From the NCBI GenBank assembly GCA_965205185.1, contig OZ242043.1, forward strand, positions 661,584-725,583: a DNA stretch of 64,000 bases, given 5' to 3'. The position numbers and the translations under genes were made by a program. Under the pieces are notes generated by a model. It was not told where the DNA came from. It saw only the letters and a list, made by a program, of their open reading frames with translations, and made no database searches. The stretch's first letter is position 1; each line of letters opens with the position of its first letter. Source of the DNA: Dehalococcoidia bacterium (GTDB taxonomy: Bacteria; Chloroflexota; Dehalococcoidia; Lucifugimonadales; UBA3495). Below, piece by piece: positions 2,127 to 62,208 of this stretch.

Positions 2127-4946
2127 ATGCCGATGAACGCCGCCAACGCCGCCCCCCGCCGCAAGCTGATCGAGGTCGACTTGCCCCTGGACGTGATCAA
2201 CGCCGAGTCCGCCCGGGAAAAGTCGATCCGCCACGGCCACCCCTCTACCTTGCACTTGTGGTGGGCGCGGCGCCCCCTGGCCGCCTGCCGCGCCGTGATT
2301 TTCGCCAGCCTGGTAGACGACCCGGCCGATTGCCCGGAGGAGTTTGCCGATCTGGACGCCCAGCGCGCCGAGCGGCAGCGGCTGCACGATTTAATCCAGC
2401 GGCTGGTCAAGTGGGAAAACGGCAACGACGCCCCCCTGCTGGCCGCGGCCCGCTACGAAATCGCCCGCTCCATCGCCCGCGGCCGCGGCGATACCGCCCC
2501 CGCCGATCCCGCCGCAGTGCTGGAGTATCTTAACCGCGAAGCCCAGCCGATTTACGACCCCTTTTGCGGCGGCGGCTCCATTCCGCTGGAGGCGCAGCGC
2601 CTCGGCCTCCGCGCCATCGGCTCCGACCTTAACCCGGTGGCGGTGCTGATTACCAAGGCGCTGATCGAGCTGCCCCCCAAGTTCGCCCACCGCCCCCCGG
2701 TCAACCCCGACGCCGACCCGATGGGCTTGACCGTGGGCCGGGGGCGCAACGCCCAACAAATCCCGTGGCGCGGCGCCGCCGGCTTGGCCGACGATGTCCG
2801 CTACTACGGGCGCAAGATGCGGGAATGGGCGTATCAGCGCATCGGCCACCTCTACCCCCAAGCCCCCCTGCCCGGCGGCGGCGGCGCCACGGTCATCGCC
2901 TGGCTCTGGGCCCGCACCGTGCCTTGCCCCAACCCCGCCTGCGGCGTGGCTATGCCCTTGATGCGGAACTGGCAACTCTCTACCAAGAAAAACAATCTGC
3001 ACTGGATGAAACCCATCATTGACCGGGACAGTCAAAGCGTCTCATTCGTTGTGCAGAACCACAACCGGGACATCCCTAAAAGCGAAACAGTGAACCGGAA
3101 TAGCGCCACCTGCATCGCCTGCAATGGCGCCGTTACCCTGGAATACGTCCGCCAGCAGGCCCGCGGCGGCAATATGAGCGAAATTATGACCTGCGTCGTC
3201 GCCAAAGGCGACCGAAATCGAATTTTTATGTCAATAACCCCGGAAACAAAAAAAATCTTCTCAAGGGCGGCGGCCCCGTGGCGGCCCCAGCAACCTATGC
3301 CCACGACCGCTTACAAGGTAAGCGGTCGTGGGTATGGAATTACCCATTGGCATCAGCTATTCAATGAACGACAGTTGACCGCCTTAACCACTTTCAGCGA
3401 TACGTTGGCGGAAGTGAAACAACTGGTAATACACGATGGCGCGGCCGAGGAATATGCCAACGCGGTCGTTACCTACCTTGCTCTGGCTGTAAGCAAAATG
3501 GCGGATTCCAACAGCAGCTTTTCAACCTACCACTTGCCGCGTGAAAACGTGCGAAGCGTTTTCGCCCGGCAAGCGATCCCAATGGTTTGGGACTATGCTG
3601 AGGGCAATCCTTTCGCCGACGCGGCGGGGACTTGGAATCTGGTATTGGACAAAATCGTTAAAGTTTTGGAATACCTGCCGGATACCAACAACCACGGCCA
3701 AGTCTATCAAGCCGACGCCGCCACAACAATCCACGCCAACAATGGCCCGGTTATCGTTACCGATCCGCCCTATTACGACAATATCAGCTACGCCGAACTT
3801 TCCGACTTTTTCTATATATGGTTGCGCCCGCTACTACGGGAAATCTACCCCGATCTGTTTTCCGGTATAATGGTTCCCATCCAAGAGGAAATGATCGCCG
3901 CGCCGCGCTTTGAGAACGCCGAGGAACGTTTCGAGTCGCTGTTGGGGCAGTCGTTGCGTCTGATACGGGAACGGTGCAGCCCGGAGTTTCCGTCGTCCAT
4001 TTTCTACGCCTACAAGCAGCAGGAACAGGAACGGGATGGCGTAACTTCAACCGGCTGGGAAACGATGCTCACCGCGCTGATCAATGCCGGATTTCAGATT
4101 GTCGGCACTTGGCCGATGCGTACCGAAATGTCTAATAGGGCCAATGCCGTGGCCGCCAACACGTTGGCATCATCGGTCGTCCTGGTTTGCCGCCCGCGGC
4201 CAGAAAACGCGCCGGTTGCCAACCGGGGGGAATTCATCGCGGCGCTGGAACGGGAAATGCCGCCGAAGCTGGATCAGTTGACCCGGGAGGCGCACATCGC
4301 CCCGGTGGATTTGCGCCAAGCCGCCATCGGGATGGGGATGGCGGTCTATTCCCGCTACGGGAGCGTGGCTACGCTATCCGGCGAACCCGTGACGGTGCGC
4401 CAGGCGCTGATGGCGATTAACGATGCGGTAGACGCCTATCTGCGCCAGCAGGCCGGGGAATTGGATTCCGAAAGCCGTTTCTGTCTGGACTGGCTGCAAA
4501 CCCACCCCAAGGGGCAAGGCGATTACGGCACCGCCCTAAACTTGGCCCTCGCCTACAATTTGTCCATCGACGACCGGCTGGCGCAAACCCACCGGCTGCT
4601 CCAGGCCCGACAAGGAACTGTATCGTTATACGGGCTGGACGACTATCACACCGACCGCGCCTATCCGCCGGCGGGCGAGGAAATCACGGCATGGGAATGC
4701 TGCCTGCGGATGGCATGGCAGATGCAGATCGGGGATGACCGGGGCGGGGTAGCGGGCTGCGTGCCGGCGGCCCGCCGCGCCGCCGGCCGGTTGGATAGCG
4801 TCGAGCGCCTAGCCCGCATCCTCTACGACCACCACAACTCCCGCCACGAATCCCAACTAGCGGTAGCGTTCAACAACGTAGTAACGGCGTGGCCGGAAAT
4901 CACCCGCGAAACCGCCCGCCCAGAATCCGGCCGGCTGCTAGAGTAA
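2127..4946 (+). CDS. DUF1156-family N6-adenine DNA methyltransferase
   Basis: 939 aa. The N-terminal block KLIEVDLPLDVINAESAREKSIRHGHPSTLHLWWARRPLAA is typical of DUF1156. Catalytic motif IV is DPPY (TDPPYYDNISYAELSDFFYIWL). Confidence 0.85.
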   Translation: MPMNAANAAPRRKLIEVDLPLDVINAESAREKSIRHGHPSTLHLWWARRPLAACRAVIFASLVDDPADCPEEFADLDAQRAERQRLHDLIQRLVKWENGNDAPLLAAARYEIARSIARGRGDTAPADPAAVLEYLNREAQPIYDPFCGGGSIPLEAQRLGLRAIGSDLNPVAVLITKALIELPPKFAHRPPVNPDADPMGLTVGRGRNAQQIPWRGAAGLADDVRYYGRKMREWAYQRIGHLYPQAPLPGGGGATVIAWLWARTVPCPNPACGVAMPLMRNWQLSTKKNNLHWMKPIIDRDSQSVSFVVQNHNRDIPKSETVNRNSATCIACNGAVTLEYVRQQARGGNMSEIMTCVVAKGDRNRIFMSITPETKKIFSRAAAPWRPQQPMPTTAYKVSGRGYGITHWHQLFNERQLTALTTFSDTLAEVKQLVIHDGAAEEYANAVVTYLALAVSKMADSNSSFSTYHLPRENVRSVFARQAIPMVWDYAEGNPFADAAGTWNLVLDKIVKVLEYLPDTNNHGQVYQADAATTIHANNGPVIVTDPPYYDNISYAELSDFFYIWLRPLLREIYPDLFSGIMVPIQEEMIAAPRFENAEERFESLLGQSLRLIRERCSPEFPSSIFYAYKQQEQERDGVTSTGWETMLTALINAGFQIVGTWPMRTEMSNRANAVAANTLASSVVLVCRPRPENAPVANRGEFIAALEREMPPKLDQLTREAHIAPVDLRQAAIGMGMAVYSRYGSVATLSGEPVTVRQALMAINDAVDAYLRQQAGELDSESRFCLDWLQTHPKGQGDYGTALNLALAYNLSIDDRLAQTHRLLQARQGTVSLYGLDDYHTDRAYPPAGEEITAWECCLRMAWQMQIGDDRGGVAGCVPAARRAAGRLDSVERLARILYDHHNSRHESQLAVAFNNVVTAWPEITRETARPESGRLLE

Positions 4947-53707: not shown

Positions 53708-54379
53708 CTATTTATTTCTTGTAGGCATACCTTTTGCTACTAGGAAACCTCCGGCTAGTATGCTCAGTCCGCCAAAGGTGAGTAGGTATTCGGGGATCTC
53801 CGACCCGGTCGCGGCGATGATCAGCATAGGAGCCGATGGGACTGCGATCAAGGTTATCCCCAGTTCCATTGCCCGGTTGCTCTTTTTTGGTCTTGCGTGT
53901 TGCCGTTCTTTTCTCATGGGTTGCTGTTGCCTCTGGCTTTCTCTCCGGGGATTGGTCGGTTGTGGTCTCGTTTGCTGGGGCTTGTTTGTGGTTTGTTGCT
54001 TGGGTCGTTCCGGTTTTGTTTGCTGGGGTTTGTTCGGGTTTGCCCGGTTTATTTTAGTGAACGCTTCTTTCAGCTCGTAGATGATGGAGGCATCCCGGTG
54101 GCTTTTTGAGTCTATTGCTACTTCGGGGTCCCAGTGCGACGAGTCGTTTCTGACCCTCCTGGCTGACTTCAGCTTCCTAAGGGTGATCCCATGAGGCTCC
54201 AGATCGCTTCTTACTTGTCCCCAGTTTTTTATGCAGTATTTGATTACCATGGCAGGGTCTGTTTGTATCCGGTATCTGTTCCCGGTTATTTTCTTGAGCG
54301 CGGGGTTGGCAGCGTCGATCATTTCCCCTAATGCTTTGTCTATGTGTACTTTGTTTTTGGTCGTTTTTTTCGCTGACAA
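53708..54379 (-). CDS. Swt1-like HEPN domain protein with basic linker and C-terminal TM helices
   Basis: LRKLKSARRVRNDSSHWD carries the RN-x3-H motif in the same context as the HEPN-TPR protein. A Q/P/K/R-rich linker is followed by two hydrophobic segments at the C-terminus. Lower GC. Confidence 0.5.
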   Translation of the reverse strand: MSAKKTTKNKVHIDKALGEMIDAANPALKKITGNRYRIQTDPAMVIKYCIKNWGQVRSDLEPHGITLRKLKSARRVRNDSSHWDPEVAIDSKSHRDASIIYELKEAFTKINRANPNKPQQTKPERPKQQTTNKPQQTRPQPTNPRRESQRQQQPMRKERQHARPKKSNRAMELGITLIAVPSAPMLIIAATGSEIPEYLLTFGGLSILAGGFLVAKGMPTRNK

Positions 54380-54458
54380 TTGAACCGCTCCGTGCGCTCG
54401 TATTGGGGTTGATATGCATCTTATGGAAGATGCATATCTTTTTCCGGGGAGGCGTCTC

Positions 54459-54650
54459 TTAGTGGCGGTGATGGTGCGAATGGCTGTGGTGGTGGGAGTG
54501 GCCTTGGCCTTTGTTCCGGTTCCCGTTTCCTGAGCGGTTGCCTTGGCGCTTTCGGTTCCGGTTGTTCTTTGGCTTGGGCTTCGCGGGGCCGAATATGTCC
54601 ATTTCGCCGTATTTCCTTGGCCCGAATATCTCGTTCCTTAGCCAGTTCAT
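54459..54650 (-). CDS. small basic, His-rich protein (63 aa)
   Basis: The ORF lies directly upstream of the HEPN-TM gene on the same strand. It has a low-complexity tail (GHSHHHSHSHHHRH). Coding status is uncertain. Confidence 0.25.
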   Translation of the reverse strand: MNWLRNEIFGPRKYGEMDIFGPAKPKPKNNRNRKRQGNRSGNGNRNKGQGHSHHHSHSHHHRH

Positions 54651-55201
54651 TTTGCCTCCTTTACTCCATTTCCTGTAGTCTTGGCATTTTAAGCGTATGA
54701 TAGATAATTTGTCTAGCCTTTTCGCAGGAATTTCGGAAATTCGATCTACCCGGGAAGTGATGCAGATCCCCGGCCGGTGAATAGAGGCTGGCGGGTTTTT
54801 GACTGTTCCGGCCTCTGATGGGGCTTGGTTCTACCGTTTTCCATCCGTAATGGGGTCACACGTTCTATCCGGTCGTCCCGTCTCTGCTTGTGGCGGACCG
54901 CAGGGCTGGAGTGCGGCTCGTGGTCCACGTGAGCATCGTGAACGCTGATGTTGCTTCCCCATTGTCTTACTACCGCCTGCTGAACAACATTGCCTGGACG
55001 GTAAGGCGGTTCTCGGTCGTTTTGCTGCCGGGCAGGGGGGATTACCGGGTCCAGACGGTTTTCGTGGGGGCTTTTGCCCGGATGGTGGTTGCCGTGGCTG
55101 ACGGGGACGTGGTGACGGAGTTGGACGTGGTTGGGCCGGAGGTGTTCGGTTACCGGGATTTGGTCTGCCGGGTGAGGGCGGCGACGGGGGCGAAGTGCGC
55201 G

Positions 55202-55940
55202 ATGTGGCCGGCGCCGCGGCGGGTTGCCTGGCTTGCGGCGGCGGCTTTGGGGCTGGTTTGGCGGGAAAATCTGTTGCCGGGGATTGAACTGGTGAATGGC
55301 GATTGCGTTGCGGTGTTGCCGGGGTTGCCGCCCGCGGACTTAATCCTCATCTCGCCGCCCTATGACAATCTGCGGGAATTTGGCGGATACAACGATGCCT
55401 TTGACTTTGACGCTATCGCCGCGGCTTGTGTTGGCAACCTTGCGCCGGGTGGGGTGCTGGTCTGGATTGTGGGTGACCAGATTATTGACGGCGGCGAAAC
55501 CGGGACATATTTCCGGCAGGCGTTGGGCTTTATGGGGTTGGGGTTGACGCTGCTCCGGACGATGATTTTCGAGCTTAATAAGTCCCGGCATGAAGTCCAT
55601 TCAGGGTATAACAAATCGTTCACATATATGTTCGTGCTATCCAATGGCAAGCCTAAAACGACGTATCCGCTGGCTGACCGCCCCAACAAATCAGCCGGAA
55701 TGTATCGCCCGAATGATCACAATTTGGGTAGAACCTTAGACCAGGAAGTGGGGCGGCGAACCGGGCGCAGTTTCGTGGTATCGGATTATGATATGCAAAC
55801 AGACATTTGGCGGTATCGCGGCGGCGGACATACAGACCCGGATTTTAAGGGCGCACATACGCATCCTGCGATATTTCCCTTGTGTCTTGCCCGTGACCAC
55901 ACCCTAAGCCGGACAGCCCCCAGCGGTTTAGTGATTGACC
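55202..55940 (+). pseudogene. beta-class DNA methyltransferase (SPPY motif), 3'-truncated; 5' part fused to an unrelated gene remnant
   Basis: GDCVAVLPGLPPADLILISPPYDN..HPAIFPLCLARD. The frame then ends at LVIDRFG exactly where an IS-type inverted repeat begins (55941). The AdoMet motif (DPFxGSGT) is missing. The upstream part of the frame (VVGPEVFGYRDLVCRVRAATG) looks like an epimerase C-terminal remnant. Confidence 0.55.
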
Positions 55941-56136
55941 GGTTCGGTTAAATTTGCTGGGTCGCTGGGGCAAACCGATTTGAGGATGCGCGACTATGGA
56001 TTGGATCTGCATCGCCAGCATTGTAGCGGCAGCGTACGTAGTGGACTTGACCATTGCCGGAGCGATGGTTTTCCTGTATTCCTTCCGTAGCCGGCAAAGG
56101 TTAGGCGATGGGCTACCCAGTAAGTTTAACGGAACC
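55941..56136. mobile_element. MITE-like element (196 bp) bounded by the same inverted repeats as the IS at 39880
   Basis: GGTTCGGTTAAATTTGCTGGGTC (55941-63) matches the IS left end at 21/23 positions. The inverted copy TACCCAGTAAGTTTAACGGAACC lies at 56114-36 (19/23). No clear target duplication. Confidence 0.5.
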
Positions 56137-56271: not shown

Positions 56272-57786
56272 TTATAGGCCGGTTAGCTCCAGGGTTGCTA
56301 CTTGGCCGGTTTCTGGGTTGGTGGTGCGGATGGCGTGGTTGTTGGTGTCGGCGATGTAGATTTGGTTGTGGGCTATGCTTAGGCCGCTGGGTTCGGAGAA
56401 TTGGGCTTGGGTTGGGGGGCCGTCGGCGTGGCCGGGGGCGCCGTTGCCGGCCAGGGTGAAGGCGGAGCGGGTGCGGGGTAGGATGCGCTTGATTTTGTGG
56501 TTGTAGGTGTCGGCGATGTAGAGGATGCCGTCGTGGTGGGTTATGCCTATGGGGTGCTGTAGCCGGACGCGGAAATCGTCGCCGTCTACGTCGCCGAACT
56601 CGAACAGGCCGAGGCCGATTAGGGTGCGGACGGAGCCGTCGTTGCCGCCGCCTTGATGGGGGGGCAGGTCGGCGCTGCGGACGGCGCTGGTTTCGCTGTC
56701 GGCGAAGTAGAGGCGGGGGCCGTTGCCGCTGTCGCCTACGATGATGCCGCTGGGTTGGGCCAGGGCGGCGGTGGCTAGGGGGCCGTCGGTGATGGCTTCG
56801 CGGCCGCTGCCGGCGTAGGGGGCTACTTGGCCGGTTTTGAGTTCCAGGGCCCAAAGCTGGTGGATGCCGGCCATGGCGATGTATAGGGATCCTTGGTGCA
56901 GGGCTAGATCCCAGGGGGAGCTTAGGGCGGTGGCGCGTCCGGGGCCGCCGCGGCGCTCGTAGCCTTGCTGTCCGGTGCCGGCGAGGGTTGCCACTTGGCC
57001 GGATGGCAGGTCTACGCGGCGGATGGCGTGGTTTTCGGTGTCGGCTATGTAGAGGATATCGCCGTCGACCGCCATTCCTTGGGGGTGGTTGAAGGCGGCT
57101 TGCGACAGTGGGCCGTCGGCTAGGGCTTCCTCGCCGCTGCCGATTATTTGCCGGACGTCGCCGTCAAGGGATGCGACGATGATGCGGTTGTGGTTGGTGT
57201 CGGCGATGAACAGCCGTCCGCGCGGTGCGTCGGCCAGGACTTTGCCGGGGAAGCTGAGGGCGCTTTCGGGGGCCGGGGGCGGGGCGGTGGGCAGGGGGGA
57301 GCGGCGCAGGATGCCGGCGGCGTCGAATTCGGCTACCATTCCCGACAGCAGGTTGTCGAATTGGTCAAAGGTGAGTTCGCCCTCGTGTTTGCCGATGACC
57401 TTGCCCAAGGGGTCGATGAACATCAGGGTGGGCCAGGCGCGGCAGGAGTACTGTTGCCAGACGCGGAAATCGGCGTCGTTGATTACCGGGTGCTCCAGTT
57501 CGTAGCGGCGCACGGCGGCGGTGAGGCCGGCGGTTTCTTTTTCGGCGGGGAATTTGGCGGAGTGAACGCCGATGACTACCAGCTCGCTGGCGTATTGGCG
57601 CTCCAGTTTCCGCAACTGCGGAAATAGATGCATACAGTTGACTCAACAGTAGGTCCAGAAGTCGAGGATGACGATTTTGCCTTTCAGCTCGTCCATGGTT
57701 AGGGGGCGGTCGGTGTTGACCCATTCGAGGCCGGCGGGGAATTCGGGGGCGGCGGTTTGGCCGGCGTAGGAGCGGCTGGTGGTCAT
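56272..57786 (-). CDS. thioredoxin-like + NHL-repeat protein (NHLRC2-like) with in-frame TGA at the CxxC position (Sec candidate or pseudogene)
   Basis: ATG at 57786 after GGAGG. The N-terminal 47 codons are [23 protein letters not shown], followed by TGA (57645-57643) and then [14 protein letters not shown]. The frame continues into track ORF 56272..57633, which has NHL repeats ([16 protein letters not shown]). Confidence 0.8.
57607..57624 (-). promoter_or_regulatory. hairpin 18 nt downstream of the in-frame UGA (bacterial SECIS candidate)
   Basis: The RNA is UUUCCGC-AGUU-GCGGAAA, a perfect 7-bp stem. Its apical loop contains GU and starts 25 nt after the UGA. Confidence 0.45.
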
Positions 57787-57859
57787 TGGAACCTCCGGGT
57801 GGCCCTCGCCCTGGCCCTCTACTAGAGGGCCAGGGGATTTTATGGGGGCGGTTGGGGTT

Positions 57860-58585
57860 TTAGGGGGCGGGGGGTTGCAGGGTTTCGGCGAGGAAATCGC
57901 GGGTTCGGGCCCAGGCCATTTCGGCGGAGGGGCGGTGGTAGCGCTGGGGCATATAGCGGTTCATAAAGGCGTGGTCGGCACCGGGGTAGGCGTAGAATTG
58001 GTGGGGTTTGCCTAGACGGGTCAGCTCGTCGTCCAGGCGGCGCATATCGTCGGGGGAGGGGTTGGCGTCGATTTCGCCGAAGTGGAAAAGGATGGGGCAG
58101 TTGATGTTGGCGGTCAACTGGAAGGGGGATGTTTCGGCGTGGCCCCACGGGACGAATATATTGCCGCCGTAGTGGGGTACGGCGGCCTTGAAATGGGGGT
58201 TGGTGGCGGCGGCGAGCCAGACTACCCGCCCGCCCATGCAGAAGCCGGTGATGCCCAGCCGCCCGCGGTCTACCCGCTCGTGGGAGCGCAGGTAGTCGGT
58301 GGCGGCGTTTACGTCGGCGATGATGTCCGGGTCGCTGAGCTGGTCGCGCTTGCTGCGGCCGGTCTGCTCCACCATTTGGTCGGTGATGCGGTGAAAGAGG
58401 TCGGGGGCGGCGGCGGCGTAGCCCTCGGCGGCGAGGCGGTCGGCGTATTCCTGGACGAATTGGTCAACGCCGGGGGCGTGGTGAATGACGATCACCGCGG
58501 GGAAGGGGCCGTTTCCGTCGGGGAGGCTCAGGTAGAGGGGCATTTCCGAAGCGCCTACGGGTAGCTTGGGCCGGGATGCGGGCAT
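57860..58585 (-). CDS. dienelactone hydrolase family protein (copy 1)
   Basis: 241 aa with nucleophile elbow GFCMGG and the C-terminal GADHAF motif. Confidence 0.85.
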
Positions 58586-58606
58586 TGGTTTTCTCCGTCG
58601 GGGCGG

Positions 58607-59470
58607 TTATTTTTCGTACCAGCCGGAGCCGATGATGAGGTTGTCGCGGCGGACTACCCAGGAATGTTTTTGTTCCTCGTTTCCGGTGGCGGGGTTGCGG
58701 TACATATAGCTGACCCATTGGCCGTAGGGGTCGGCGGCGTCGAAGTCGGCGCCGTAGTGGTAGCCGTTGATGTCGATCAGCTCGGCGTAGGTTAGGCCGA
58801 TGCGCTCGGGGCGGGTGGCGTGGGATACGATGCCTTCATCGTCGTCGATGATGAATATGTACCATTCGCCGTAGACGCTGTCTTGGGTGTTGTAGTATTC
58901 GACCACGGCGTCGCGGCCGATGGCGTCGTAGCGGCGGGCGGCTTCGGCGACGAATGCCTGGGTGTAGGCGGGGGATGCGTCGGGGCCTTCGTACCAGCCG
59001 GAGCCGAAAACCAGCCCGTCGTGGCGCATTACCCAGGAATGCTTGCGTTCCTCTTGGCCGGTGTCGGGGTTGCGGTAGGTGTAGACGACCCAGTCGCCGG
59101 CTTCGGGGGCGTTGGCGATGTCGGCGCCGTAGTTGTGTCCGTCCTCGCCGGTCAGGCCGGGGAGTTGGGCGACGGGTTGGCCCAGGTTTTCGGGGCGGGG
59201 GGCGCTGGCGATGACGATGCCGTTTTCGTCGATGATGAACACGTACCAGGGGCCGTCGGTGGATTCTTGGCTGTTGTAGCGGGCGATGGCGGCGTCGCGG
59301 CCTTGCTGCTGGTAGAGGAAAATGGCGTCGGCGACGCGGGATTGGGCTTCGACGGCGGGGCTTTGCGGGGTTTCCCACATTAGTTCGGGGCCGGCCATTC
59401 CCATCATTCCCGGCCCGGCAAAGGCCGACAGGAGTAGCCCGATCAGGGATAGAAACAGTCCGATGATCAT
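58607..59470 (-). CDS. secreted/membrane-anchored protein with two tandem single-Cache (sCache_2-like) domains, no output domain
   Basis: N-terminal TM segment. Two repeats follow the pattern WYVFIID..G..I......P...G......D..G..YG......G.WV.Y.YRNP.TG.EE.KHSWV...D.L..GSGWYE. Confidence 0.6.
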   Translation of the reverse strand: MIIGLFLSLIGLLLSAFAGPGMMGMAGPELMWETPQSPAVEAQSRVADAIFLYQQQGRDAAIARYNSQESTDGPWYVFIIDENGIVIASAPRPENLGQPVAQLPGLTGEDGHNYGADIANAPEAGDWVVYTYRNPDTGQEERKHSWVMRHDGLVFGSGWYEGPDASPAYTQAFVAEAARRYDAIGRDAVVEYYNTQDSVYGEWYIFIIDDDEGIVSHATRPERIGLTYAELIDINGYHYGADFDAADPYGQWVSYMYRNPATGNEEQKHSWVVRRDNLIIGSGWYEK

Positions 59471-59524
59471 TCTGATGCATCCTTTTCGGAAATTCGCGGG
59501 GGTTTGCGGATCCTGAGTTTTTGG

Positions 59525-59565
59525 CCCATCCCCCGAATCGGATGGTGCGCGGTTCGGGGGATGGG
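59525..59565 (-). terminator. 13-bp inverted repeat downstream of dienelactone hydrolase copy 2
   Basis: CCCATCCCCCGAA..15 nt..TTCGGGGGATGGG. There is no clear U-tract on the minus strand. Confidence 0.35.
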
Positions 59566-59589
59566 ATCTATGGATTTCCCGGTTTCTTG

Positions 59590-60324
59590 TTAGGCGGCTA
59601 CCGGGGCGGCCTTGAGGTGGCGGTCAAAGAATTCGATGGTGCGGGGCCAAGCGGCGGCGGCGGCTTCGGGGTGGTAGCGGTCGGGGTTGTTGAAGTCCAT
59701 AAAGGCGTGGTTGGCGCCTTCGTAGGTATGGAATTCGTGGGGTTTGCCCAAGCGGGTTAGCTCGGCGGCCAGCTTGTCGCGGTCGGCGAGGGAGGGGTTG
59801 GCGTCGATGGAGCCGAAATGGAACAGCATAGGGCAGTTGATGTTGGCGGTCAGGTCAAAGGGGGTCTGCTGGCCGCTACCCCAGATGCCCATAATGTTGC
59901 CGCCGTAGAAGGGGGCGGTGGCCTTGAATATGGGGTTGACGGCGGCCATCAGCCAGGCGATGCGCCCGCCCATACAGAAGCCGGTTACGCCGATGCGGTC
60001 GCGGTCGACGTGGGGGTTGGCGACTAGGAAATCGACGGCGGCGTTCATATCGGCGATGATGTCGGGGTCGTTGAGGTGGTTGAGACGGTCCAGGCGGGGG
60101 CCGTCCAGCACTTCCTGCGGGAAACGGTGGAACAGGTCGGGAACTACGGCGACGTAGCCGGCTTCGGCGAGGCGGTCGGCCATAGTCTTATCGAATTCGT
60201 CCAGCCCGCCGACGTGAAAGGCGATTACTATGGCGGGGTGGGGGGCGGAGCCGCCGCTGGGGACTGCGGCGTACAGATCCATTTCCGAACCGTTGACGGT
60301 TAGCTTGTCGGTGAAGGATGGCAT
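59590..60324 (-). CDS. dienelactone hydrolase family protein (copy 2)
   Basis: ATG at 60324 (MPSFTDKLTVNG). It has GFCMGG and GANHAF and is a paralogue of copy 1. Confidence 0.85.
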   Translation of the reverse strand: MPSFTDKLTVNGSEMDLYAAVPSGGSAPHPAIVIAFHVGGLDEFDKTMADRLAEAGYVAVVPDLFHRFPQEVLDGPRLDRLNHLNDPDIIADMNAAVDFLVANPHVDRDRIGVTGFCMGGRIAWLMAAVNPIFKATAPFYGGNIMGIWGSGQQTPFDLTANINCPMLFHFGSIDANPSLADRDKLAAELTRLGKPHEFHTYEGANHAFMDFNNPDRYHPEAAAAAWPRTIEFFDRHLKAAPVAA

Positions 60325-60451
60325 ATCAAACGCTCCGTGGGGTTGTTTCGCGCTGCGGGGTCGTTCTTGGTACGAGGGCAGGCGATGGGTGTATTTTAAC
60401 AGATATGGGGCGGGCGCGGGGCGCGGCGTTGGCGGTTGGGGGGATCCGGCC

Positions 60452-60650
60452 ATCCTTCGACAAGCTCAGGATGAGTATGGGGCGAGATCGGGATGAGTAT
60501 GGGGCAAGATCGGGATGAGTATGGGGCAAGATCGGGATGAATATGGGGCGGGCGGGGGAATCCCGGCCATCCTTCGACAAGCTCAGGATGAATATAGGGC
60601 AAGATCGGGATGAATATGGGGCAAGCTCAGGGTGAATATAGGGCGGCCGG
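60452..60650. repeat. family-2 elements plus ~7 copies of a 22-bp tandem unit GATGAGTATGGGGCAAGATCGG
   Basis: Tandem units start at 60470, 60492, 60514 and 60536. After a family-2 element (60567-60595), further units start at 60587, 60609 and 60631 and become increasingly degenerate. Confidence 0.8.
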
Positions 60651-60703
60651 GGGGATCCCCCCCGGCGGCGTGGGTGCGGGTTTATGGCGGCGCGGGTGGG
60701 GGG

Positions 60704-62038
60704 TTAGATTAGGCCCTCGGCGCGGACGGCGGACATTGTGTTGCCGAAGGTTTCGATGGTTTGGTCGATGTCGGCTTCGGTGTGGGTAGCGGATACTAGG
60801 AAAGCGTCGCGGCCCATAATGTCGACGCCGCGGTTTTGGAGGCCGCGTTTCATGGCGGTTACGGCGGGGGATGCGGTGATGTCGGCGATTTCGGAGTGGG
60901 CCATAGTGCAGATTTCGCGGTCGCAGTCGCAGTCGGCGAGGACGATGTGGATCATAGAGGCGATGCCGTGGGCGTGGCCGGGGATTTCGAGGCGGCCCAA
61001 GATTTCGTTGATGCCGGACTTGAGGCGGGCGGCCATGGCGTCGGCCTGCTGGTTGATGGGCTGGGCGGCGATCAGTTCCAGGGCGGCGGCGCCGGCGGCG
61101 GCGGATAGGGGGTTGGCGTTGAAGGTGCCGGGGTGGTAGACGCGATGGGAGTTGTCCCATTCGGGGTCGCCGCGGTGGGCGATCAGATCGATGATGTCGG
61201 CTTTGCCGCCGACGGCGCCGCCGGGGAGTCCGCCGGCGACGATTTTCGCCATCGTGGTGAGGTCGGGGTCGATGCCGTAGCGCACTTGCGCCCCGCCGGG
61301 GGAGGCGCGGAATCCGGTTACTACTTCATCGAAAATGAGGATGACTTCGTAGTGGGCGGTTATCTGGCGCAGTCCGCTCAGGTAGGCGGGGATGTCGTAG
61401 GTTAGCTGGCCGTAGTGGGCGCCGGTGGGTTCGAGGATCAAGGCGGCGATGTTGTGGTTTTTGGATAGCACGTCCTCTACGGCGGCTAGGTCGCCGGGGG
61501 GGACTACCACCATCGTGCCCATGGCGGCTTCGGGGATGCCGGGGGCGGAGCGGTCGGAGCCGGCCATGGCGTAGTCGTGCCAGCCGTGGAAGTGGTCCTG
61601 GAGTTTGATTACCTGGTCTTTGCCGGTGTAGGCGCGGGCGAGGCGCATCGCCATTAGGGTGGCTTCGGTGCCGGAGCTGTGGAAGCGGAGTTTTTCGATG
61701 GAGGGCATCAGGGCTTTGATGGCTTTGGCCCAGCGGAGTTCCTCGTCGGTGGAGGCGCCCAGGTGGGTGCCGCGTTGGATTTGGCGGGCGACGGCGTCGG
61801 CGATGGCGGGGTGGGAATGGCCCAGCAATAGGGCGCCGTGGCCGGAGACGTAGTCGACATATTCGTTGCCGTCGACATCCCATTTGCGGGGGCCTTGGCC
61901 GTGGGTCATATATAGGGGGAAGGGGGTGGCGTAGCGGGTGTCGTGGGTGACGCCGCCGGGGAATATGGCGATGCTTTCGCGGTAGCGTTGGGCGGAGCCG
62001 GGATGTTTGGCGGCGTATTCCTCAATAATGGTGGGCAT
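60704..62038 (-). CDS. class-III aminotransferase (glutamate-1-semialdehyde 2,1-aminomutase-like)
   Basis: ATG at 62038 after AGGAGG. It has FHSSGTEATLMAMRLARAYTG, DEVVTGFR and a Lys region (TMAKIVAGGLPGGA). Confidence 0.85.
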   Translation of the reverse strand: MPTIIEEYAAKHPGSAQRYRESIAIFPGGVTHDTRYATPFPLYMTHGQGPRKWDVDGNEYVDYVSGHGALLLGHSHPAIADAVARQIQRGTHLGASTDEELRWAKAIKALMPSIEKLRFHSSGTEATLMAMRLARAYTGKDQVIKLQDHFHGWHDYAMAGSDRSAPGIPEAAMGTMVVVPPGDLAAVEDVLSKNHNIAALILEPTGAHYGQLTYDIPAYLSGLRQITAHYEVILIFDEVVTGFRASPGGAQVRYGIDPDLTTMAKIVAGGLPGGAVGGKADIIDLIAHRGDPEWDNSHRVYHPGTFNANPLSAAAGAAALELIAAQPINQQADAMAARLKSGINEILGRLEIPGHAHGIASMIHIVLADCDCDREICTMAHSEIADITASPAVTAMKRGLQNRGVDIMGRDAFLVSATHTEADIDQTIETFGNTMSAVRAEGLI

Positions 62039-62208
62039 AATGCCTCCTGGCGGTTTGCGCGTCTTGTTCAGGTTGGGGGTACGGGTTGCCATTGTAGCGG
62101 GCGGCGGCGGGTTGCGCTACGGCCGCGGCGGGGTTGGCGGGGTTTCCGCGGGGGATGGATCGCGGAAAGGGGCGCTATCCGGTGATTGGGCGTTGGTGAC
62201 CGGGGCGG

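Follow-up and report, generated by a model that had tools for sequence, protein, structure and literature searches.

Plant SOQ1 and human NHLRC2 combine a thioredoxin-like domain with a six-bladed NHL propeller and carry a CC(I/V)NC motif. In SOQ1, the redox pair is C431–C434 of CCINC, with a midpoint potential (Em) of -274 mV; this pair passes electrons to a cysteine pair in the C-terminal domain, and the lumenal domains have methionine-sulfoxide-reductase activity towards LCNP (SOQ1 preprint). The corresponding motif of NHLRC2 occupies residues 89–93, and the protein showed no activity in an insulin-reduction assay; a role in thiol-disulfide exchange was questioned (NHLRC2 structure paper). 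Here, we describe a thioredoxin-NHL gene in a 64-kb stretch of contig OZ242043.1 from a Dehalococcoidia bacterium, referred to below as the window, in which an in-frame TGA stands within the active-site motif. We propose that minus-strand positions 57786–56272 are very probably a single gene for a cytoplasmic selenoprotein of 504 residues, with the UGA read as selenocysteine (Sec).

Known selenoproteins with Sec at the N-terminal position of a CxxC motif (UxxC) include thioredoxin, glutaredoxin, Prx-like thiol:disulfide oxidoreductase, DsbA-like, and Redoxin proteins. They resemble the window gene in the placement of Sec, in having widespread Cys homologues, and in carrying a selenocysteine insertion sequence (SECIS) in the coding region just past the UGA. 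These proteins are, however, single-domain members of other thioredoxin subfamilies; the window gene joins its redox domain to a propeller that binds substrate. A "thiol-disulfide isomerase-like protein" with UxxC, first represented by four Sargasso Sea sequences in 2005 and assigned to pfam13905 (2022 review) and cd02966 (2026 review), has MAK15852.1 and MGB1650493.1 as catalogued representatives. This family shares the Thioredoxin_8/TlpA-like subtype (PF13905) and Sec in UxxC with the window protein, but by description it consists of the thioredoxin domain only, with no mention of an NHL propeller or of NHLRC2/SOQ1. The window gene may belong to this catalogued family, and since the thioredoxin subtype is the same, its kind is known at the domain level.

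Among single-domain proteins, ResA, TlpA, and DipZ are closest in sequence to the thioredoxin-like domain. These differ in being extracytoplasmic and WCxxC-type, with neither propeller nor Sec, and the window protein falls far below their NCBIfam cutoffs: no NCBIfam family was reached at its cutoff, the best score being that of ResA (57.6 bits versus 170); StoA scored 38.4 versus 210 and TlpA 22.4 versus 230. In the literature searched, we found no paper linking NHL, NHLRC2, or SOQ1 to selenocysteine or selenoproteins, and a link of Sec to the NHLRC2/SOQ1 family is apparently undescribed. It is quite possible, though we would stop short of calling it probable, that Sec-containing NHLRC2/SOQ1 orthologues form a widespread unrecognised subfamily in Dehalococcoidia, other Chloroflexota, Rokubacteria, and Ca. 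Fervidibacter, in which the SECIS core dictates a peptide and the Sec/Cys pair marks the catalytic cysteine.

A thioredoxin-NHL reading frame through an in-frame TGA

The frame opens on the minus strand at an ATG (57786–57784) that follows a GGAGG with a 5-nt spacer, both read directly from the sequence. It reads DFWTYC-TGA-VNC and continues past the TGA without a further stop to a TAA at 56274–56272, giving 504 sense positions. The open reading frames (ORFs) listed for the window divide this frame into one of 47 aa (57786–57643) and one of 453 aa from an ATG at 57633, the fourth codon past the TGA; no Shine-Dalgarno sequence precedes this internal ATG. The original prediction, made from the window sequence before any comparison, had proposed both the GGAGG-ATG start and an uninterrupted frame into the 453-aa NHL ORF, whose Met lies four codons past the TGA. 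The start is present where it was placed, and the translation bears out the continuous frame.

By alignment, the product is a bacterial orthologue of plant SOQ1 and human NHLRC2 with two domains. In a Pfam scan run with Cys substituted at position 48, the best thioredoxin-type match was Thioredoxin_8 (PF13905) at residues 36–130 (48.5 bits versus a cutoff of 27); AhpC-TSA and Redoxin also matched, and NHL repeats were recognised with E = 6e-27. The lumenal thioredoxin-NHL region of Arabidopsis SOQ1 (7djj) aligns to residues 11–503 (E = 3e-126) and human NHLRC2 (6gc1) to residues 11–500 (E = 1e-115), while the propeller structures 7djm (E = 4e-77) and 6g7w (6e-70) align end to end with residues 175–503; by this alignment the NHL propeller is six-bladed. 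The likeness to SOQ1 and NHLRC2 extends to the DFWTYC[C/U](I/V)NCMH context and the cis-Pro loop.

In the 7djj alignment, DFWTYCCINCMH stands opposite DFWTYC-U-VNCMH. The TGA thus aligns with the second Cys of CC(I/V)NC, which is C431 of SOQ1 and, by the published numbering, C90 of human NHLRC2. Given the published positions of the SOQ1 pair and the NHLRC2 motif, the TGA occupies the place of the first, attacking Cys of the CxxC pair, so that the window protein would differ from both relatives in having Sec for the first Cys of the redox pair. Two statements of the original prediction are upheld here: that homologues carry DFWTYCCINC at this position, which is seen in homologous loci as well as in the SOQ1/NHLRC2 alignment, and that the TGA replaces the first redox Cys to give UxxC, which agrees with the Cys homologues, SOQ1, and NHLRC2 alike.

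Direct reading of the N-terminus shows no signal peptide or membrane segment, and the protein is therefore probably cytoplasmic. The Sec-form gene ends in ..TLELTGL right after the propeller, and in further distinction from SOQ1/NHLRC2 it has no C-terminal domain, HAD domain, membrane anchor, or signal peptide. Most bacterial Cys-form homologues run about 140 residues further, into a C-terminal domain like that of NHLRC2/SOQ1. Among the 3' ends of the window and loci L001–L080, Sec use correlates with loss of the C-terminal domain; L062 and L053 are among a few Sec forms that also seem long at the 3' end.

Homologous loci were collected by a tblastn-type scan with one genome per species, and 80 loci were fetched. 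The homologous codon is TGA in 47 of these and TGC or TGT in the other 33, so that both TGA and Cys occur in orthologues, a comparison that the original prediction had named as a check. Loci with TGA come mostly from Dehalococcoidia, together with SAR202, unclassified Chloroflexota, Ardenticatenia, two Rokubacteria, Ca. Fervidibacter sacchari PD1 (L039), and one unclassified metagenome-assembled genome (MAG); the genomes that share the TGA do so at 50–80% protein identity. TGC or TGT is found in Acidobacteriota, Latescibacterota, anammox Planctomycetota, Armatimonadota, Verrucomicrobiota, Binatia, Chloroflexia, Thermobaculum, and others.

In every TGA locus, the 45 codons upstream of the TGA are free of stops and indels. 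Their differences from the window at codon positions 1, 2, and 3 number 483, 376, and 980, and for the closest relative (L017) 1, 1, and 17. This pattern indicates protein-level selection on the upstream codons, in one frame with the downstream part; selection is purifying on both sides of the TGA. A start codon lies 45–47 codons before the TGA in nearly all Sec forms. The internal Met is not conserved: 31 Sec forms keep it, and the other 16 of the 47 have Ala, Leu, or Val.

In an approximate neighbour-joining tree, the Sec forms make up a few coherent groups that lie largely apart from the Cys forms. The SECIS core described below is identical across Chloroflexota, Rokubacteria, and Fervidibacter, which suggests a single origin of the Sec form, followed by vertical descent with some transfer.

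The hairpin as a conserved RNA element

Past the UGA, the transcript can form the hairpin UUUCCGC-AGUU-GCGGAAA, which starts 18 nt after the UGA and whose loop begins 25 nt after it. The bSECISearch rule places the start of the loop 16–37 nt after the UGA. A small apical loop containing G is a hallmark of bacterial SECIS elements (PMC1088965), and the AGUU loop is small and contains G. The hairpin foreseen by the original prediction at 18 nt past the UGA is thus found in place, with a G-containing loop that fits the published description.

The evidence that this element is maintained comes from relatives. For the counts that follow, Sec forms are the window and 46 of the 47 TGA loci, the remaining locus (L077) having no such hairpin. 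The 12-nt core CCGCAGTTGCGG is identical, and at the same distance from the TGA, in the window and these 46 loci. It encodes Pro-Gln-Leu-Arg and spans four degenerate codons whose third positions are invariant, whereas the other third-codon positions in the 57-nt stretch vary in 14 of 14 cases. Elsewhere in the same 47 genes, CCG, CAG, TTG, and CGG make up 0.38, 0.71, 0.15, and 0.30 of their codon families, and the chance that the PQLR peptide would use exactly these four codons is ~1%.

Outside the core, the stem changes in a manner consistent with base pairing. Among 45 distinct sequences, there are four invariant G-C pairs and the helix is paired in nearly all cells; pair 22–39 is UA in 34, CG in 7, and UG in 3, and pair 24–37 is UA in 42, GC in 1, and UG in 1. 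Compensatory changes therefore include seven from UA to CG and one from UA to GC. The covariation score of 0.100 compares with a shuffle mean of 0.063, was reached by 0 of 500 shuffles, and lies above that of all slid registers. In one covarying case, a replacement of Phe by Leu is matched by a synonymous change in a Lys codon, which indicates that the RNA constraint reaches into the protein sequence. On folding, the Cys forms gave no comparable hairpin, and they carry I-P-D-L-K-K where the Sec forms have FPQLRK. The locus thereby offers a clean case of an RNA element fixing a protein sequence, in which the putative SECIS forces Pro-Gln-Leu-Arg with fixed codons.

Collectively, the conserved TGA/Cys pairing, the coding conservation on both sides, and the covarying hairpin support the selenoprotein assignment made in the original prediction.

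Alternative explanations and the decoding machinery

Several observations weigh against reading the UGA as Sec. Searches of the 64-kb window and of ~0.6 Mb of sequence flanking the TGA loci found no selA, selB, selD, or tRNA-Sec. With ARAGORN, the window gave no tRNA at all and the 47 Sec-form loci gave no tRNA-Sec, and tblastn with E. coli SelA, SelB, and SelD gave no match in the window; the only matches in the loci, two SelB-like ones, turned out to be LepA and EF-Tu and were rejected. A 76-nt fold of the window sequence alone has z = -1.15, and folds at least as good were obtained for 33 of 200 shuffles; because the single-sequence fold is unremarkable, the significance of the hairpin comes only from the comparison with relatives. 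An Rfam scan of 57400–57900 gave sub-threshold chance matches only and no family. Finally, locus L077 ('bacterium Bin_57_9', 4438–4520) has the TGA without the CCGCAGTTGCGG hairpin, in a G-U-V-N-C context with the Cys-type IPDLKRLE, and is nested among Cys forms in the tree. The possible readings of L077 are a pseudogene, an error, and an independent Sec gain with a different SECIS.

On the other side, the BSepDB paper, which scores a species as Sec-utilising only when at least two Sec-pathway genes are present, gives 49 selenoprotein genes for Dehalococcoidia bacterium UBA1141 and 46 for a second Dehalococcoidia MAG whose isolate name is of the same style (PMC13326102). One of our TGA loci (L008) is a UBA1141 contig and has the same TGA and hairpin as the window; by the published listing, this carrier genome uses Sec. 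TGA also serves as a stop codon in these genomes: 13 Sec-form orthologues, the UBA1141 copy included, end in TGA at the conserved ..TLELTGL C-terminus, and a genome-wide reassignment of TGA is rejected because of this.

The alternatives named in the original prediction were a nonsense mutation and a sequencing error. A pseudogene, in which TGC or TGT of a Cys-type thioredoxin-NHL gene mutated to TGA and inactivated it, needs only a single base change, and L077, with its TGA among Cys forms and no hairpin, suggests that such events may occur. For the window gene we consider this very improbable: the TGA is common to 46 other species-level genomes at 50–80% protein identity, no further stops or frameshifts have accumulated, substitutions are biased to third positions on both sides, and a dedicated RNA hairpin co-occurs with the TGA. 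An error of sequencing or assembly in the window is a general hazard, as single-base errors occur in long-read assemblies, and nothing specific speaks for it here. Its probability is negligible, given the 28 members of the window's cluster at 90% identity or more, nearly all with the truncated 453-aa call, the TGA in 47 fetched loci, and an orthologue (77% identical) that is split in the same way in three independent ENA assemblies. Equally remote as a pseudogene is a locus with two products, a 47-aa peptide and a functional 453-aa protein that starts at ATG 57633 and lacks the first active-site residue. This matches the reading of every gene caller, but the internal ATG is without a Shine-Dalgarno sequence and its Met is replaced in 16 of 47 Sec forms, the short form would lack a beta-strand and the attacking residue that align continuously to SOQ1/NHLRC2, and the upstream 45 codons are selected at the protein level in the same frame. 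We therefore regard a sequencing error, a recent nonsense mutation, and the two-gene reading as excluded by the conserved TGA, the selection upstream of it, the non-conserved Met, and the independent assemblies.

The identity of the inserted residue is a separate matter. The UGA might be recoded as something other than Sec, either as Trp or Cys through a near-cognate or suppressor tRNA, or by a SelB-like factor with a Cys-charged UCA tRNA. Cys-charged tRNAs with a UCA anticodon have been described in some bacteria. The sequence data speak for recoding rather than for a particular residue, and the missing Sec machinery in the window and locus flanks leaves room for such a mechanism. We nevertheless judge it improbable, if less so than the three readings above, since the position is the classic catalytic Cys of the UxxC thioredoxin fold at which Sec and Cys interchange, the hairpin has published bacterial SECIS features (PMC1088965), and the carrier genome UBA1141 is published as Sec-utilising, with its large set of selenoprotein genes.

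Additional TGA sites were also considered. A scan of the window for TGA with coding-like composition on both sides returned the selenoprotein site and 3032–3034 only. The latter (minus strand, with 92 and 59 flanking codons) was judged spurious as a Sec site, its peptide looking low in complexity. Codon-usage scans of the flanks of Sec-form loci for other selenoprotein genes were noisy and gave nothing convincing.

Proposed function, annotation and genomic neighbourhood

We infer SelB-dependent decoding, redox chemistry, and a substrate for this protein as follows. When the ribosome meets the UGA, the hairpin would act as a bacterial SECIS, its core CCGC-AGUU-GCGG recruiting SelB-GTP-Sec-tRNA(Sec), so that Sec would be inserted and release factor 2 would not end the chain. 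Sec48 would replace the N-terminal attacking Cys, giving C-U-V-N-C in place of the C-C-I/V-N-C of homologues, in a thioredoxin-like domain predicted to pack against the six-bladed NHL propeller. Sec48 and Cys51 would cycle between selenol/thiol and selenenylsulfide at a cleft facing the propeller, and the pair would reduce a substrate bound to the propeller, which, if SOQ1 is a guide, may be an oxidised protein thiol or methionine sulfoxide. The step by which the SOQ1 thioredoxin domain hands electrons to a C-terminal domain cannot exist in the window protein, as Sec forms end after the propeller. With no such relay possible, the Sec centre probably acts directly on its substrate, a speculative proposal.

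Natural Sec/Cys pairs are recognised as marking catalytic redox cysteines, and the pair seen here argues that the CC(I/V)NC of the NHLRC2/SOQ1 family performs real redox catalysis. Mutations in human NHLRC2 cause FINCA disease. The Sec/Cys pair bears on the biochemical function of the human protein and supports recent proposals of redox and methionine-sulfoxide-reductase-type activity for SOQ1. Contrary to the doubt expressed in the NHLRC2 structure paper, a natural Sec predicted at the NHLRC2-equivalent Cys argues for a thiol-disulfide role. An experimental handle may come from Ca. Fervidibacter sacchari PD1, which is apparently cultured and carries the Sec form.

The gene is systematically shortened in databases. 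With the full-length protein as query, the 120 best database homologues, at 75–100% identity, are all 444–476 aa long with 90% query cover, and all begin MH[IL]FPQLR, that is, at the Met after the TGA. Nearly all members of the window's own cluster are called at 453 aa, and the three ENA contigs of the 77%-identical orthologue each have a 47-aa ORF abutting a 444-aa ORF. With residues 1–113 as query, the matches were all short fragments of the Cys type, and no full-length form annotated with Sec was among them, a weak result from a small candidate set. Gene callers split or shorten the gene in every close relative examined. The original prediction had called the selenoprotein previously unannotated, and this holds for the assemblies, where 120 of 120 best homologues are shortened, though not for the kind of protein, as its UxxC subtype has been catalogued since 2005. 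Every NCBIfam model stays below its cutoff, so that automated pipelines lack a model made for this gene, and the mis-calls will probably continue. The consequences extend across a large group of Dehalococcoidia from soil and sea that is rich in selenoproteins.

Table 1. Coordinates of the proposed selenoprotein gene and its elements within the window.
Feature	Position	Strand	Basis
Proposed full selenoprotein coding sequence, thioredoxin-like domain and NHL propeller, predicted Sec at 48, with TAA	56272..57786	-	Translation; tblastn matches to residues 1-504 in relatives
Shine-Dalgarno GGAGG, 5 nt before ATG 57786	57792..57796	-	Read directly
Codons 1-47, strand leading into the active site; for gene finders a separate 47-aa ORF or ignored	57646..57786	-	Free of gaps and stops in orthologues
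In-frame UGA, putative Sec (U48), motif C-U-V-N-C	57643..57645	-	TGA/Cys alignment with homologues, SOQ1, NHLRC2
SECIS-type hairpin UUUCCGC/GCGGAAA, 7-bp stem, loop AGUU at 57617-57614	57607..57624	-	Fold and pair counts
Invariant 12-nt core CCGCAGUUGCGG, Pro-Gln-Leu-Arg codons, 4 G-C pairs and AGUU loop	57610..57621	-	47/47 Sec forms; pattern search
Internal ATG, probable false start of the truncated 453-aa call	57631..57633	-	Met not conserved among Sec forms
Thioredoxin-like domain (Thioredoxin_8 / TlpA-like), residues ~11-150, CUVNC and WPT cis-Pro loop	57337..57756	-	Pfam, PDB alignment
NHL-repeat beta-propeller, residues ~175-503; gene end directly after	56278..57264	-	Pfam NHL, 7djm, 6g7w

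Upstream of the gene (57860–62116), the order is class-III aminotransferase, dienelactone hydrolase (DLH), a small or Cache-domain protein, a second DLH hydrolase, and then the thioredoxin-NHL gene, and the same order is found in L083–L085 (6110–9695) at 77% protein identity. No redox partner or sel gene was found among these upstream neighbours in the window or in L083–L085. Between the DLH hydrolase stop (57860) and the ribosome-binding site of the selenoprotein gene lies a perfect 12-bp palindrome, CCCTGGCCCTCT-AGT-AGAGGGCCAGGG (57809–57835), which is unique in the window and terminator-like but without a T-run. Just downstream of the gene, 53708–55951 holds two ORFs with atypical GC by codon position, one with a weak DUF6548 match on the minus strand and one for an N6/N4 DNA methylase on the plus strand. 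This segment is probably acquired DNA; L083–L085 have an amidohydrolase gene at the same position.

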